Assembly (NCBI RefSeq): GCF_003334405.1
Contig: NZ_QOWM01000004.1
Origin: Escherichia coli
Lineage (GTDB): Bacteria > Pseudomonadota > Gammaproteobacteria > Enterobacterales > Enterobacteriaceae
Length of the DNA: 64,000 nt
Strand: one strand, 5' to 3'
Under the pieces are notes generated by a model, which saw nothing but the letters and a program-made list of their open reading frames with translations, was not told the origin of the DNA and did no database searches. A program made the translations under genes and the position numbers. Below, one piece after another: positions 22,077 to 25,221 of this stretch (positions within the stretch are counted from its first letter, which is position 1; each line of letters opens with the position of its first letter).

Positions 22077-22808
22077 TTACTGTGGGAACCACTGGTCACT
22101 GATTTTTTGATAAGTACCGTCAGCTTTAATTGCTGCCAGCGCGTTATTCAGTTTTTCCAGCAGGGCTTTGTTATCCGGACGTACAGCGATGCCCAGGCCG
22201 GTGCCAAAATATTGCGGATCGGTCACTTTCTCAGTAGCAACACCAAGTTGTGGATTGGTTTTCAGCCATTCGTTTACCACCGCTGTGTCACCAAATACCC
22301 CATCAATACGACCATTTTTCAGATCGATAAAGGCATTCTGATAACTGTCATAAGAGACAGTTTTCACTTCCGGGTGCTGATCCTGAATATATTTCTGGTG
22401 CGTAGTACCGTTTTCCATCCCAATACGTTTGCCTTTCAGATCGGCAAACGTTTTGTAGGTATCTTTTTTGGCAATCACGACGGCTGAGTTTTCATAGTAG
22501 GGCGTGGTAAACGATACCTGTTTGCTACGCTCCGGGGTGATATCCATACCGGAGATTACGGCGTCATATTTTCTGAATTTCAGGGACGGGATCAGGCTGT
22601 CGAACGCGTGATTAGTAAAAGTACATTCTGCCTGCATTTGTTTGCACAAGGCTTTTGCCAGATCGATATCAAAGCCGACAATCTCATTATTAGCACCTAT
22701 AGATTCAAAGGGTGGATAGGTGGCTGAAACGCCAAAATTGATTTTCTCTGCGGCAGAAGCACCGAAAGTAAAGGAAGCAAGTAAAGCGGCAAGAACTAAC
22801 TTTTTCAT
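22077..22808 (-). CDS. artJ: Arginine ABC transporter periplasmic binding protein ArtJ (243 aa)
   Basis: Track ORF 22077..22859 trimmed to MKKLVLAALLASFTFGASA...; paralog of ArtI. Confidence 0.92.
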   Translation of the reverse strand: MKKLVLAALLASFTFGASAAEKINFGVSATYPPFESIGANNEIVGFDIDLAKALCKQMQAECTFTNHAFDSLIPSLKFRKYDAVISGMDITPERSKQVSFTTPYYENSAVVIAKKDTYKTFADLKGKRIGMENGTTHQKYIQDQHPEVKTVSYDSYQNAFIDLKNGRIDGVFGDTAVVNEWLKTNPQLGVATEKVTDPQYFGTGLGIAVRPDNKALLEKLNNALAAIKADGTYQKISDQWFPQ

Positions 22809-22878
22809 GATGGAACTCCCGTCTGTCAATCTTATGATTTTTGGCCGTGTCTGCGGCATGGGATAACAATGCCATCAA

Positions 22879-22896
22879 GTGAATTTATATGCAATA
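22879..22896 (-). promoter_or_regulatory. Putative ArgR operator (ARG box) upstream of artJ
   Basis: gtgaatttatatgcaata resembles the TnTGAAT-N4-ATTCAnA ARG box; artJ is a known ArgR target. Not scored computationally. Confidence 0.4.
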
Positions 22897-22923
22897 AACA
22901 TGATTAAATAATTTAAATGAAAT

Positions 22924-22958
22924 AAAAAAGACGGACAACTTAGTGGGTTGTCCGTCTT
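22924..22958 (-). terminator. Rho-independent terminator of artPIQM
   Basis: Minus strand: hairpin gacggacaac...gttgtccgtc followed by tttttt. Confidence 0.6.
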
Positions 22959-22977
22959 CATTATAAGAATTTATGCA

Positions 22978-23072
22978 CTATGTAGGCCGGATAAGGCGTC
23001 CCCGCCGCATCCGGCACAGGCACCGTGCTGATGTCTGATGCGACGCTGGCGCGTCTTATCAGACCTACAAAA
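22978..23072. repeat. REP/BIME palindromic units
   Basis: tgtaggccggataaggcgtccccgccgcatccggca and gcgtcttatcagacctaca are REP-like. Confidence 0.8.
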
Positions 23073-23098
23073 CCCCCCGGCGAATGTACGCAGCCACA

Positions 23099-23767
23099 TT
23101 AATTTCGCCGTTCGAATGCCAGCGCTTTGCGCTCGATCAGACGCATCATCAGCGTCAGCAGGCCGTTAACGACCAGGTAAATAATCCCTGCCGCACCGAA
23201 CACCATTACATCGTAGGTGCGTCCGTACAACAACTGGCTGTATCCCATCACTTCCATCAGCGTAATGGTGTATGCCAGAGAGGTACTTTTGAATACCAGC
23301 ACCACTTCGTTGGAATAAGAAGAGAGCGAGCGTTTAAAGGCATACGGCAGCAGGATCGCCAGCGTATCTTTTTTGCTCATTCCCAGGGCGCTACAGGACT
23401 GCCACTGACCTTCCGGGATCGCACGAATTGCACCGTAAAACAGCTGCGTGGTATACGCCGCACTATTCAGCGACAACGCAATCAGCGCACATAACCACGG
23501 TTCTGACAACAAATGCCACAGTGCCGGATACTCCTGCAAAGTCGGAAACTGGCCCGGCCCGTAATAAATCAGGAAGATCTGCACCAGCAGCGGCGTACCG
23601 GTAAACAGCGTGATATAACCCCGCACCAGCCACACCAGCACCGGCGTTTTCAGCGTCAGGATGATGGTAAAAATCAATGCCAGAATCAGTGCCACAATCA
23701 GCGAGGCAACGGTTAGCGTCAGGCTGGTGTGTAGCCCTTTCATCAGTTCGGGTAAATACTCAAACAT
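23099..23767 (-). CDS. artM: Arginine ABC transporter permease ArtM (222 aa)
   Basis: Track ORF; recognised; synteny. Confidence 0.92.
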   Translation of the reverse strand: MFEYLPELMKGLHTSLTLTVASLIVALILALIFTIILTLKTPVLVWLVRGYITLFTGTPLLVQIFLIYYGPGQFPTLQEYPALWHLLSEPWLCALIALSLNSAAYTTQLFYGAIRAIPEGQWQSCSALGMSKKDTLAILLPYAFKRSLSSYSNEVVLVFKSTSLAYTITLMEVMGYSQLLYGRTYDVMVFGAAGIIYLVVNGLLTLMMRLIERKALAFERRN

Positions 23768-24483
23768 TAGCTGGGCCTCCGCTCAAAACGTGTCGCGCGC
23801 AGGTCAATGCGTTTGAGAATGTACTGACTGAGCAGGGTGATCACCAGGTAAATCGCCGCCGCCACAATGTACCAGGTAAATGGTTCCTGGGTACGAGTAG
23901 CGATGCTTTTTGTTTGCAGCATTAAATCATTCACACTAATCAAACTGACCAGCGCGGTATCTTTCAGCAGCACCAGCCACTGGTTACCGAGGCCAGGCAG
24001 CGCATGACGCCACATCTGCGGCATCACCAGACGGAAAAAGATAGCCGATTTCGACAGCCCCAGCGCCTGACCAGACTCCCACTGACCCACCGGCACCGCT
24101 TTCAACGCGCCCCGAAGCGTTTGCGAGGCATAGGCGGCATACAGCAGTGACAGAGCGATGACACCACAAAGGAACGGGCTAACGTCGAAGTTCTCAATGT
24201 CCATCTGCACTGGGATCTGCACGAACCCAAGATTGATAGTGAAGCCATCCGAAAGCGTCAGCAGCAGCTGCGAGGAGCCAAAATAGATAAACAGCACCAC
24301 CAGAATTTCTGGCAGGCCACGCAGAATGGTTACCAGCGCTGAACCTGCCCACGCGACAGGACGCCATTTTGCCGACTCCCATACCGCAAAGAACATCGCC
24401 AGCGCCAGCCCGACAATCAATGCACAAACGGCAAGGCCGACGGTCATCCCGGCGGCGCTTGCTAAAGGAAAAAATTCATTCAT
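23767..24483 (-). CDS. artQ: Arginine ABC transporter permease ArtQ (238 aa)
   Basis: Track ORF; 1-nt overlap with artM. Confidence 0.92.
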
Positions 24484-24489
24484 CAGGAA

Positions 24490-25221
24490 TTACTTCTGGA
24501 ACCATTTGTTGTAGATGGTTTCGTAAGTGCCATCTTTCTTCACTTTTTCCAGCGCAGTGTTGAGTTTCTGCTGCAGCTCAGTGTTGCCCTGACGTACCGC
24601 GATGCCGAGGCCAGTGCCGAAGTAATCTTTATCGGTCACTTTGTCGCCCACCGCCGCCAGTTTCGGGTTATCTTTCAGCCACTCAGTGACCACTGCGGTG
24701 TCACCGAAGACGCCGTCGATACGCCCGTTTTGCAGATCCAGTTTTGCGTTCTGGTAGCTGTCATACGGAACGGTAGTGATTTCCGGGTGCTTATCCATAA
24801 TGAATTTCTGGTGTGTCGTCCCGTTCTGTACGCCGACTTTTTTGCCTTTCAGCTGATCAACACTGGTGTATTTGCCTTGCTGACCCACAAACAGGGCAGA
24901 GTTGTCATAGTACGGGGTGGTAAACAGCACCTGCTTTTCACGCTCCGGAGTGATATCCATGCCCGCCATCACGGCTTCTACGCGACGGAATTTCAGGCTT
25001 GGGATCAGGCTGTCAAACGCCTGGTTAGAGAAAGTGCAGGTTGCATCAATCTCTTTACACAGCGCTTGTGCCAGGTCGACGTCAAAACCAACGATCTGGT
25101 TGTTTGCATCAATCGATTCAAACGGAGGATAGGAGGCTTCGGTAGCAAAACGAATGGTTTCGGCAGCTGTGGCGGAAAGACTAAAACCTGCAATTAACGC
25201 GGCAATCAGAACTTTTTTCAT
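24490..25221 (-). CDS. artI: Arginine ABC transporter periplasmic binding protein ArtI (243 aa)
   Basis: Track ORF; signal peptide; paralog of ArtJ. Confidence 0.92.
   Translation of the reverse strand: MKKVLIAALIAGFSLSATAAETIRFATEASYPPFESIDANNQIVGFDVDLAQALCKEIDATCTFSNQAFDSLIPSLKFRRVEAVMAGMDITPEREKQVLFTTPYYDNSALFVGQQGKYTSVDQLKGKKVGVQNGTTHQKFIMDKHPEITTVPYDSYQNAKLDLQNGRIDGVFGDTAVVTEWLKDNPKLAAVGDKVTDKDYFGTGLGIAVRQGNTELQQKLNTALEKVKKDGTYETIYNKWFQK

Follow-up and report, generated by a model that had tools for sequence, protein, structure and literature searches.

Within a 64,000-nucleotide stretch of Escherichia coli DNA (contig NZ_QOWM01000004.1, hereafter the window), the genes artJ and artI encode two paralogous periplasmic binding proteins. 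As shown in Table 1, they belong to the artPIQM-artJ arginine transport locus of E. coli K-12. Positions 21700-25400 were 100% identical to E. coli K-12 JM109 by megablast, with matches in all 5,426 complete E. coli genomes. The genes artP, artI, artQ and artM follow one another with gaps of 17, 6 and −1 bp, and the gap between artM and artJ is 290 bp. In transcript sense this last gap contains two repetitive extragenic palindromic (REP) sequences of types Z2 and Y, then a terminator hairpin, two ARG boxes and a putative extended −10 promoter. The locus, its two transcription units, their control by ArgR and Lrp, and the existence and polymorphism of REPs and of bacterial interspersed mosaic elements (BIMEs) were already known from published work. 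A preliminary description of the window had proposed an old tandem duplication of artI and artJ, later insulated by REP elements. The explanation that we consider very probable is an ancient artI/artJ duplication, with a conserved terminator and promoter separating artJ and with the REPs as recent polymorphic insertions.

Table 1. Features of the artPIQM-artJ locus in window coordinates
Feature	Positions	Strand	Basis or remark
rlmC	ends 21878	+	RefSeq/MG1655 annotation
Hairpin 1 (stem 21880-21899) with U-tract, predicted artJ-sense intrinsic terminator	21870-21899	-	directly after rlmC stop codon (21878)
BIME-1, 152 bp: 16-nt terminal inverted arms (21899-21914, 22035-22050), Y, L linker, Z1	21899-22050		repeats, REP matches
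Y REP	21929-21962		consensus match, 1 error
BIME-1 L linker with IHF-consensus-like site 21975-21987 (ATTCAATACATTG, 1 mismatch to WATCAANNNNTTR, by eye)	21963-21997	+	Rfam ES036
Z1 REP	21998-22026		consensus match, 0 errors
Hairpin 2, 18-nt copy (83% identical) of hairpin 1, artJ side of BIME-1, without artJ-sense U-tract	22051-22068		direct repeat
artJ, arginine-specific periplasmic binding protein, 243 aa	22077-22808	-	RefSeq; NCBIfam ArtJ equivalog; Pfam SBP_bac_3
Putative artJ sigma-70 promoter: −35 TTGCAT (22889-22894), extended −10 TGgCATTGT (22866-22874)	22866-22894	-	sequence reading
ArgR operator of artJ: proximal box 22878-22895 (1 mismatch), 3-bp spacer, distal box 22899-22916 (5 mismatches by eye)	22878-22916	-
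Predicted artPIQM intrinsic terminator: 13-bp stem 22927-22959, then U-tract	22918-22959	-	terminator scan; forms in folded 3′ untranslated region
BIME-2-like unit: Y, 17-nt linker, Z2	22982-23068		between artM stop codon and terminator
Y REP	22982-23015		consensus match, 2 errors
Z2 REP	23033-23068		consensus match, 2 errors
artM, permease subunit	23099-23767	-	open reading frame list, RefSeq/MG1655 annotation
artQ, permease subunit	23767-24483	-	open reading frame list, RefSeq/MG1655 annotation
artI, paralogous periplasmic binding protein inside the operon, 243 aa	24490-25221	-	NCBIfam ArtI equivalog; annotation
artP, ATPase subunit, first gene of artPIQM	25239-25967	-	open reading frame list, MG1655 annotation
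artP control region: ARG box 26023-26040 (2 mismatches), weaker box 26044-26061 (4 mismatches by eye)	26023-26061	-

The lengths of ArtJ and ArtI were counted from their annotated MKK starts; the longest open reading frame (ORF) listed for artJ has 260 codons for amino acids and begins at an upstream ATG at 22859. BLASTP aligned the two proteins end to end, with 156 of 241 residues identical (65%), 81% positives, no gaps and an E value of 2e-125. The equal length and full-length alignment reported in the preliminary description were borne out, and the identity lies above the value of about 25% below which that description would have given up the duplication. The shared sequence blocks that it listed are real overall, except that SYPPFES occurs only in ArtI; ArtJ has TYPPFES, and the common block is YPPFESI. 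ArtJ scored 535.3 bits over residues 1-243 on its NCBIfam equivalog model NF041765 (cutoff 510) and ArtI scored 536.9 bits over residues 1-243 on NF041764 (cutoff 522), while each fell below the cutoff of the other's model (ArtJ 385.6 bits on NF041764, ArtI 398.1 bits on NF041765). ArtJ is a family-3 solute-binding protein (SBP), with a full-length SBP_bac_3 match (Pfam PF00497, residues 23-242, E 6e-43). The nearest solved structure to both proteins is the Salmonella arginine-binding protein STM4351 (2y7i; E 1e-93 for ArtJ), and when structures were compared by sequence ArtI matched the same ones as ArtJ. Both proteins appear by eye to carry signal peptides: after the initial MKK come hydrophobic residues and then an A-x-A motif (ASA|AE and ATA|AE); the solved homologue aligns to ArtJ from residue 19. 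A Kd of 0.4 µM for arginine has been reported for ArtJ, and arginine and ornithine are given as the ligands of ArtI (PMC6640053).

Age and probable direction of the artI/artJ duplication

With one genome per species, the comparative scan covered 80 loci in genera that range from Escherichia to Yersinia, Pectobacterium and Brenneria. The order artP-artI-artQ-artM-artJ was kept in all 70 loci that span the operon, which represent at least three families. In trees built from the mature regions, with labels assigned by synteny, ArtJ and ArtI were reciprocally monophyletic, and the label given by sequence was the label given by synteny in 70 of 70 genomes. The ArtJ|ArtI split was recovered in 100 of 100 bootstraps in a 20-genome neighbour-joining analysis. 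Within E. coli, artJ and artI show about 1.95 synonymous substitutions per synonymous site (dS) and 0.26 nonsynonymous substitutions per nonsynonymous site (dN), their third-position identity is 45%, and their longest identical run is 14 nt. No gene conversion tract was seen between the two E. coli genes and, as judged by these sequence comparisons, there is no recent gene conversion between them. The old age proposed for the duplication is therefore supported by the conserved order, the bootstraps and the dS, and the phylogeny, with its separate sister clades, agrees with duplication.

A family-wide neighbour-joining tree was built by adding single-domain representatives from a library of 1.84 billion proteins. 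In this tree the ArtJ side, together with STM4351-type proteins and the orphan P0003, was sister to the ArtI side, and the proteins P0017 and P0028 fell outside both. Each of these two outgroup proteins is encoded in an operon of the form ATPase-SBP-permease-permease, which has only one SBP gene and lacks any behind the second permease. Because this single gene occupies the artI position, that position is probably ancestral and artJ the added copy. The ancestor of Enterobacterales would have possessed an artP-artI-artQ-artM operon with one binding-protein gene, and a copy of this gene, added after artM, would have become artJ. Either a larger artIQM segment was duplicated and the extra permeases were then lost, or artI alone was copied. 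The word tandem in the preliminary description is not warranted, as artQ and artM lie between the copies and no trace of a larger duplicated segment can be seen. The two copies would since have diverged to their present identity, and both are assumed to dock on one ArtQMP2 transporter. Identity between ArtJ and ArtI of the same genome is 72-74% in Yersinia, Brenneria and Pectobacterium and 62-65% in Enterobacteriaceae, which suggests faster divergence in the latter or past conversion in the other families.

That artJ was not duplicated in place but was acquired horizontally, as a stand-alone binding-protein gene landing beside artM, we regard as very unlikely. The best non-self NCBIfam model of ArtJ is ArtI, and the sister-group relation in the family tree speaks for a common origin of the two sides. 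In the genomes examined, the post-artM position is fixed wherever both genes share a contig, bar a few lineage-specific insertions between them. ArtJ-side orphans do travel, as seen for P0003 (66% identical), which is on a conjugative element beside arginine-catabolism genes, and Salmonella STM4351 is nearer to ArtJ than to ArtI (316 vs 279 bits); yet in the tree these mobile or orphan relatives split off on the ArtJ side, as if they had been exported by the enterobacterial lineage and were not donors to it. Acquisition would also agree with the non-adjacency of artJ and artI and with their G+C content at third codon positions (GC3), which is 46% in artJ and 60% in artI. This GC3 gap could hint at a different history or at a different expression level.

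Several relatives of the two genes were found in other settings. P0003 (SRR12125109, SRR13884943) lies beside genes for carbamate kinase, ornithine carbamoyltransferase and ArgR, and its neighbourhood also adjoins the conjugation genes TraU and TraG, which makes it an arginine-catabolism module on a mobile element. The ArtI-side homologue P0087 (GCA_036327475.1, a 1.87-Mb genome) is near clpS, clpA and infA amid many very short ORFs and appears to belong to a locus in decay within a reduced genome. In Kluyvera genomosp. 3 YDC799, artP and rlmC each match in two pieces and the match to artQ is cut short, which points to frameshifts or sequencing errors in the record.

Predicted terminator, promoter and operator upstream of artJ

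The proximal ARG box of artJ differs by one mismatch from WNTGAATWWWWATTCANW and was the sole match at no more than one mismatch in the 64 kb, where 0.08 would be expected. Because a scan at up to three mismatches showed no enrichment in the window (8 found vs 6.6 expected), the case for the operator rests on this one match, on the spacing and on conservation. The operator consists of two 18-bp boxes 3 bp apart, which overlap the putative −35 element of artJ. The same 18+3+18 layout, with the boxes over the −35 element, and binding of ArgR have been reported for artJ (PMC6640053). The ARG-box-like operator ascribed to artJ in the preliminary description was confirmed as a near-perfect box in the canonical arrangement. 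An automated sigma-70 scan found no artJ promoter, the −10 element being weak and of the extended type; on the strength of conservation and the literature, a putative promoter is assigned to 22866-22894. The promoter/ARG-box block (anchor TTGCATATAAATTCA, at most two changes) was present upstream of artJ in 76 of the 80 loci, usually 85-87 nt from the ATG. The ARG boxes of artP likewise overlap a promoter-like site, TTAACT-18-CATAAT.

The hairpin after artM is G+C-rich, is followed by a U-tract and has a conserved structure, as predicted for an intrinsic terminator. It was kept across 39 enterobacterial sequences, with compensatory double changes at 4 of 9 pairs, in 10-14 of the 39 sequences. 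According to the literature, artJ and artPIQM are separate sigma-70 units, ArgR represses artJ about nine-fold more strongly than artP, and Lrp acts on artP only; regulation and REP properties are taken here from PMC6640053, PMC8050422, PMC3333891 and PMC1187871. The 290-bp gap with its intrinsic terminator and its own promoter and operator upholds the view of artJ as a separate transcription unit. The separateness of artJ would be due to two old conserved signals, the terminator after artM and the sigma-70 promoter overlapped by the ArgR boxes.

Some loci depart from the usual arrangement. Raoultella planticola ATCC 33531 has a 5.9-kb cassette between artM and artJ and keeps the artJ promoter block. 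The genes of this sugar-acid cassette encode a GntP-family transporter, a PdxA-like dehydrogenase, a D-threonate-kinase-like protein, a DeoR regulator and a KpsF/GutQ isomerase. Yersinia similis Y228 has artJ and rlmC, with no artPIQM within 7 kb upstream, and also keeps the promoter block; an IS110-family transposase fragment lies near its artJ, and the artM-artJ spacers of other Yersinia are 500-900 bp. In Brenneria sp. the artM-artJ spacer is 61 bp and has neither the conserved terminator nor the promoter/ARG-box block. Because the block is absent from so short a spacer, artJ is probably co-transcribed with artPIQM in Brenneria.

REP and BIME clusters on both sides of artJ

REPs were searched by fuzzy matching to the Y, Z1 and Z2 consensus sequences, with five shuffles of the window as control. 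Four copies were found, each an imperfect palindrome of about 30-36 nt ending in CTAC/GTAG. No match was obtained in the five shuffles, and the only other candidate in the 64 kb was a weak one at 59457-59492, with 6 errors to the Z2 consensus. The consensus sequences were corroborated by the number of matches per genome, which runs to dozens (median at least 40; lowest 10 and 13), and by matches to Rfam families that derive from REP RNAs, namely naRNA4 at 22985-23065 (75.5 bits against a gathering score of 59.5) and ES036 at 21963-22005 (42.2 against 37.6). REP clusters do lie on either side of artJ, at 21929-22026 and 22982-23068, as the preliminary description had stated. PMC4550694 gives about 355 REP loci per genome. 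Because a few dozen genes would be bracketed by chance, according to a rough estimate, the bracketing of artJ is statistically unremarkable.

The cluster on the rlmC side belongs to a BIME-1, the boundaries of which follow from two independent copies, one downstream of ybhN and the other between fepA and entD. A BIME-1 copy covering at least 80% of the element was present in every one of the 5,426 genomes. On the artM side, the Y and Z2 REPs are joined by a short S linker as in BIME-2. Multiple tandem copies are not present in K-12, where one Y-Z2 unit was found; in SC477 the spacer holds only Y, and in Escherichia sp. L009 it holds three REPs. The stretch 22982-23068 is best called a BIME-2-like single unit.

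In the 80-locus scan, REPs in the artM-artJ spacer were limited to Escherichia, plus different and independent Z1+Y insertions in three Citrobacter, and most other genera had REP-free spacers of 147-220 bp. All the Escherichia species sampled had some REP in the stretch from artM to the terminator, in varying form: E. coli has Z2+Y, E. albertii has Y+Z2, and a further species has three units. Likewise, only Escherichia has the BIME-1 downstream of artJ. Alleles among the 5,426 E. coli genomes were counted with junction-specific megablast queries and coverage thresholds. Of these genomes, 3,158 (58%) had BIME-1 next to rlmC, and 3,407 (63%) had the stretch on the Z2 side, as queried with 23040-23110, which takes in the 3′ part of Z2 together with its flank. 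Strain SC477 lacks both BIME-1 and the Z2 REP, and its rlmC-artJ spacer of 28 bp consists of one hairpin common to the convergent genes; its ArtJ protein is identical to that of K-12, with the same operator box and terminator stem. Presence or absence of BIME-1 among isolates has been described before (PMC1187871). The positions of the REPs are therefore not kept beyond Escherichia and are polymorphic among E. coli strains, and the REPs at the art locus are much younger than the artI/artJ duplication. In this respect the word later in the preliminary description was right.

The surroundings of artJ on the rlmC side vary in other ways. In O157:H7 F7386, genes for the phosphotransferase system (PTS) proteins IIC and IIB and for a sulfatase adjoin artJ in place of rlmC, and a different hairpin follows artJ. 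Gaps of about 3.5 kb between artJ and rlmC in three other Escherichia loci (L005, L009, L010) may be comparable. The artJ-rlmC distance is about 2.3-2.5 kb in Klebsiella, Raoultella, Enterobacter, Kluyvera, Lelliottia and relatives and 198 bp in K-12.

In K-12 the BIME-1 is flanked by two hairpins, and the hairpin copies together with the 16-nt arms form a 35-nt inverted repeat (21881-22068). Hairpin 1 alone makes up the entire rlmC-artJ spacer in SC477 and Citrobacter amalonaticus. O103 strain ML775 carries BIME-1 but lacks hairpin 2, which is also missing from E. albertii and from other Escherichia. Of the 5,426 genomes, 1,702 (31%) have a junction of the K-12 type, with the second hairpin, and about 1,460 further genomes matched only the hairpin-plus-artJ-end part of the junction query, like the empty site. 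Three rlmC-artJ alleles occur in E. coli. The empty site has one hairpin and is shared with C. amalonaticus; BIME-1 accompanied by one hairpin is also the form in E. albertii; the third allele has BIME-1 and both hairpins. An AA that resembles a remnant of the second copy is left in the one-hairpin allele. One could imagine that the K-12 spacer is the primary footprint of BIME-1 insertion beside a bidirectional terminator, with an 18-bp duplication of the whole hairpin, and that the one-hairpin allele is a 24-bp deletion derivative, an idea that we think improbable. If such a footprint were general, BIME-1 would target and duplicate terminator hairpins, a clue to the spread of REPs and BIMEs. 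No description of an 18-bp hairpin duplication flanking BIME-1 was found in the papers covered here. GAAT at the ybhN copy of BIME-1 was considered as a 4-bp target duplication, but it also follows the fepA-entD copy and may belong to the element, and the reading was dropped. The three natural alleles, each in about a quarter to a third of sequenced strains, are suited to measuring the effect of REPs on mRNA.

In transcript sense, the terminators at 22959..22927 and 21899..21880 are downstream of the two REP clusters. The upstream cluster would lie inside the artPIQM transcript and not between the units, because it is located between the artM stop codon and the terminator. The artJ transcripts of K-12 should run through BIME-1 to the hairpin 21899..21880, because the hairpin nearest artJ has no U-tract. 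From this arrangement, both REP clusters would lie within 3′ untranslated regions (UTRs). The two 3′ UTRs, of artPIQM and of artJ, are predicted to fold strongly, with −78.5 kcal/mol (z −5.9) and −92.8 kcal/mol (z −9.5), respectively.

The insulation by REP elements proposed in the preliminary description would mean that the clusters separate artJ from artPIQM and rlmC, transcriptionally or topologically, and were retained for that function. Besides the bracketing itself, it would fit reports that REPs can serve as terminators or shield neighbouring DNA topologically from transcription-induced supercoiling, that IHF binds the L linker of BIME-1 and that Y/Z2 pairs bind gyrase (PMC3333891). The location of the upstream cluster before the artPIQM terminator does not agree with it, nor do the REP-free genera, which have the same terminator, promoter and operator. 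Moreover, one cluster or the other is absent from about 37-42% of E. coli genomes, and SC477, without BIME-1 and half of the other cluster, has an unchanged ArtJ, operator box and terminator stem. Insulation by REPs is not supported by these data, and we find it scarcely credible. Less improbable, though still unlikely, is that selection fixed the insertions in Escherichia because they raise ArtJ and ArtPIQM mRNA as 3′ stabilisers or tune translation of the gene just upstream. The very stable UTR folds and the established stabilisation of mRNA by REPs (PMC3333891, PMC1187871) would fit, as would the presence of a REP before the terminator in all sampled Escherichia species, even if number and order differ. 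Against selection stand the extensive presence/absence polymorphism, including that of BIME-1 among isolates (PMC1187871), and the strong terminator hairpin that already ends each UTR and would protect the 3′ end.

We therefore return to recent insertion beside old signals. The Y+Z2 pair would have inserted behind the artM stop codon, ahead of the artPIQM terminator, and the 152-bp BIME-1 beside the terminator common to artJ and rlmC, most likely because a position in the 3′ UTR is harmless. From the general properties of REPs (PMC3333891), their effects are probably a modest protection of mRNA against 3′-to-5′ exonucleases, IHF binding by BIME-1 and gyrase binding by Y/Z2. The flanking repeats would then be young, dispensable passengers of 3′ UTRs and not boundary elements of artJ, which corrects a tempting misreading; the true boundaries, the covarying terminator and the ArgR operator, would be as old as the duplication.

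Several points weigh against this explanation. The GC3 of artJ is clearly lower than that of artI despite the ancient duplication, and the ligand of ArtI is disputed, the protein still being putative in the MG1655 annotation. All trees were neighbour-joining only, the outgroup argument rests on two contigs, and Salmonella and non-enterobacterial gamma-proteobacteria were not among the 80 loci. The E. coli allele frequencies, which come from megablast coverage thresholds, are approximate. The placement in 3′ UTRs and the stabilising effect are both things that we infer, and with REPs reported as topological insulators (PMC3333891), some insulation of supercoiling at the art locus is possible.

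Elsewhere in the window, Rfam matches above gathering scores were obtained for the small RNA RybB (10209-10287) and for STnc130 (62967-63101), both on the minus strand. A type I-F CRISPR remnant at 47986-48074, with two repeats and one spacer, adjoins tRNA-Ser(GGA) at 48117-48204. Its first repeat matches Rfam CRISPR-DR4 (47986-48013) and its second is degenerate (48047-48074). We take this remnant to be the known orphan array near clpA/infA in K-12. Sub-threshold Rfam matches to AbsR25, Ysr224, isrK and CRISPR-DR53 were dismissed.

Comparison with known systems

The element at 21899-22050 agrees with the definition of BIME-1 in its inverted Y and Z1 REPs, its long L linker with a predicted IHF site, a length near the usual 140-150 bp, its single occurrence at the locus, its 3′-end location and its presence or absence among strains (PMC3333891, PMC1187871). 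The copies at ybhN and fepA-entD have no flanking hairpin duplication, in contrast to the 18-bp terminator-hairpin duplication at the K-12 artJ copy. The unit at 22982-23068 resembles BIME-2 and REP325, the source of naRNA4, in its inverted Y and Z2 REPs, short linker, naRNA4 match and variable copy number and order (PMC3333891). BIME-2 loci typically have several tandem units, whereas the K-12 art locus has one. The naRNA4 score is better on the plus strand while the art transcript is on the minus strand, and a nucleoid-associated RNA from this copy is unsupported.

REPs are classical stabilisers within operons at malE-malF and hisJ-hisQ. Like these, the art REPs would be transcribed downstream of a coding region and able to block 3′-to-5′ exonucleases. 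The classical REPs, however, lie between genes of one operon and set differential expression, whereas the art REPs come after the last gene and before a stable terminator hairpin.

The argT-hisJQMP system of E. coli and Salmonella likewise uses two paralogous family-3 binding proteins on one complex (HisQMP2); they are 70% identical, compared with 65% for ArtI and ArtJ. On the models for ArgT and HisJ, ArtJ reached only 158-179 bits, well short of the cutoffs. argT and hisJ lie side by side upstream of the permeases, whereas artI is internal to its operon and artJ downstream of the permeases. In both systems one copy has its own promoter and a different regulation. argT depends on sigma-54 and NtrC and is not regulated by ArgR, in contrast to the art locus, where both units are; hisJ, artJ and artP are all controlled by ArgR (PMC6640053).

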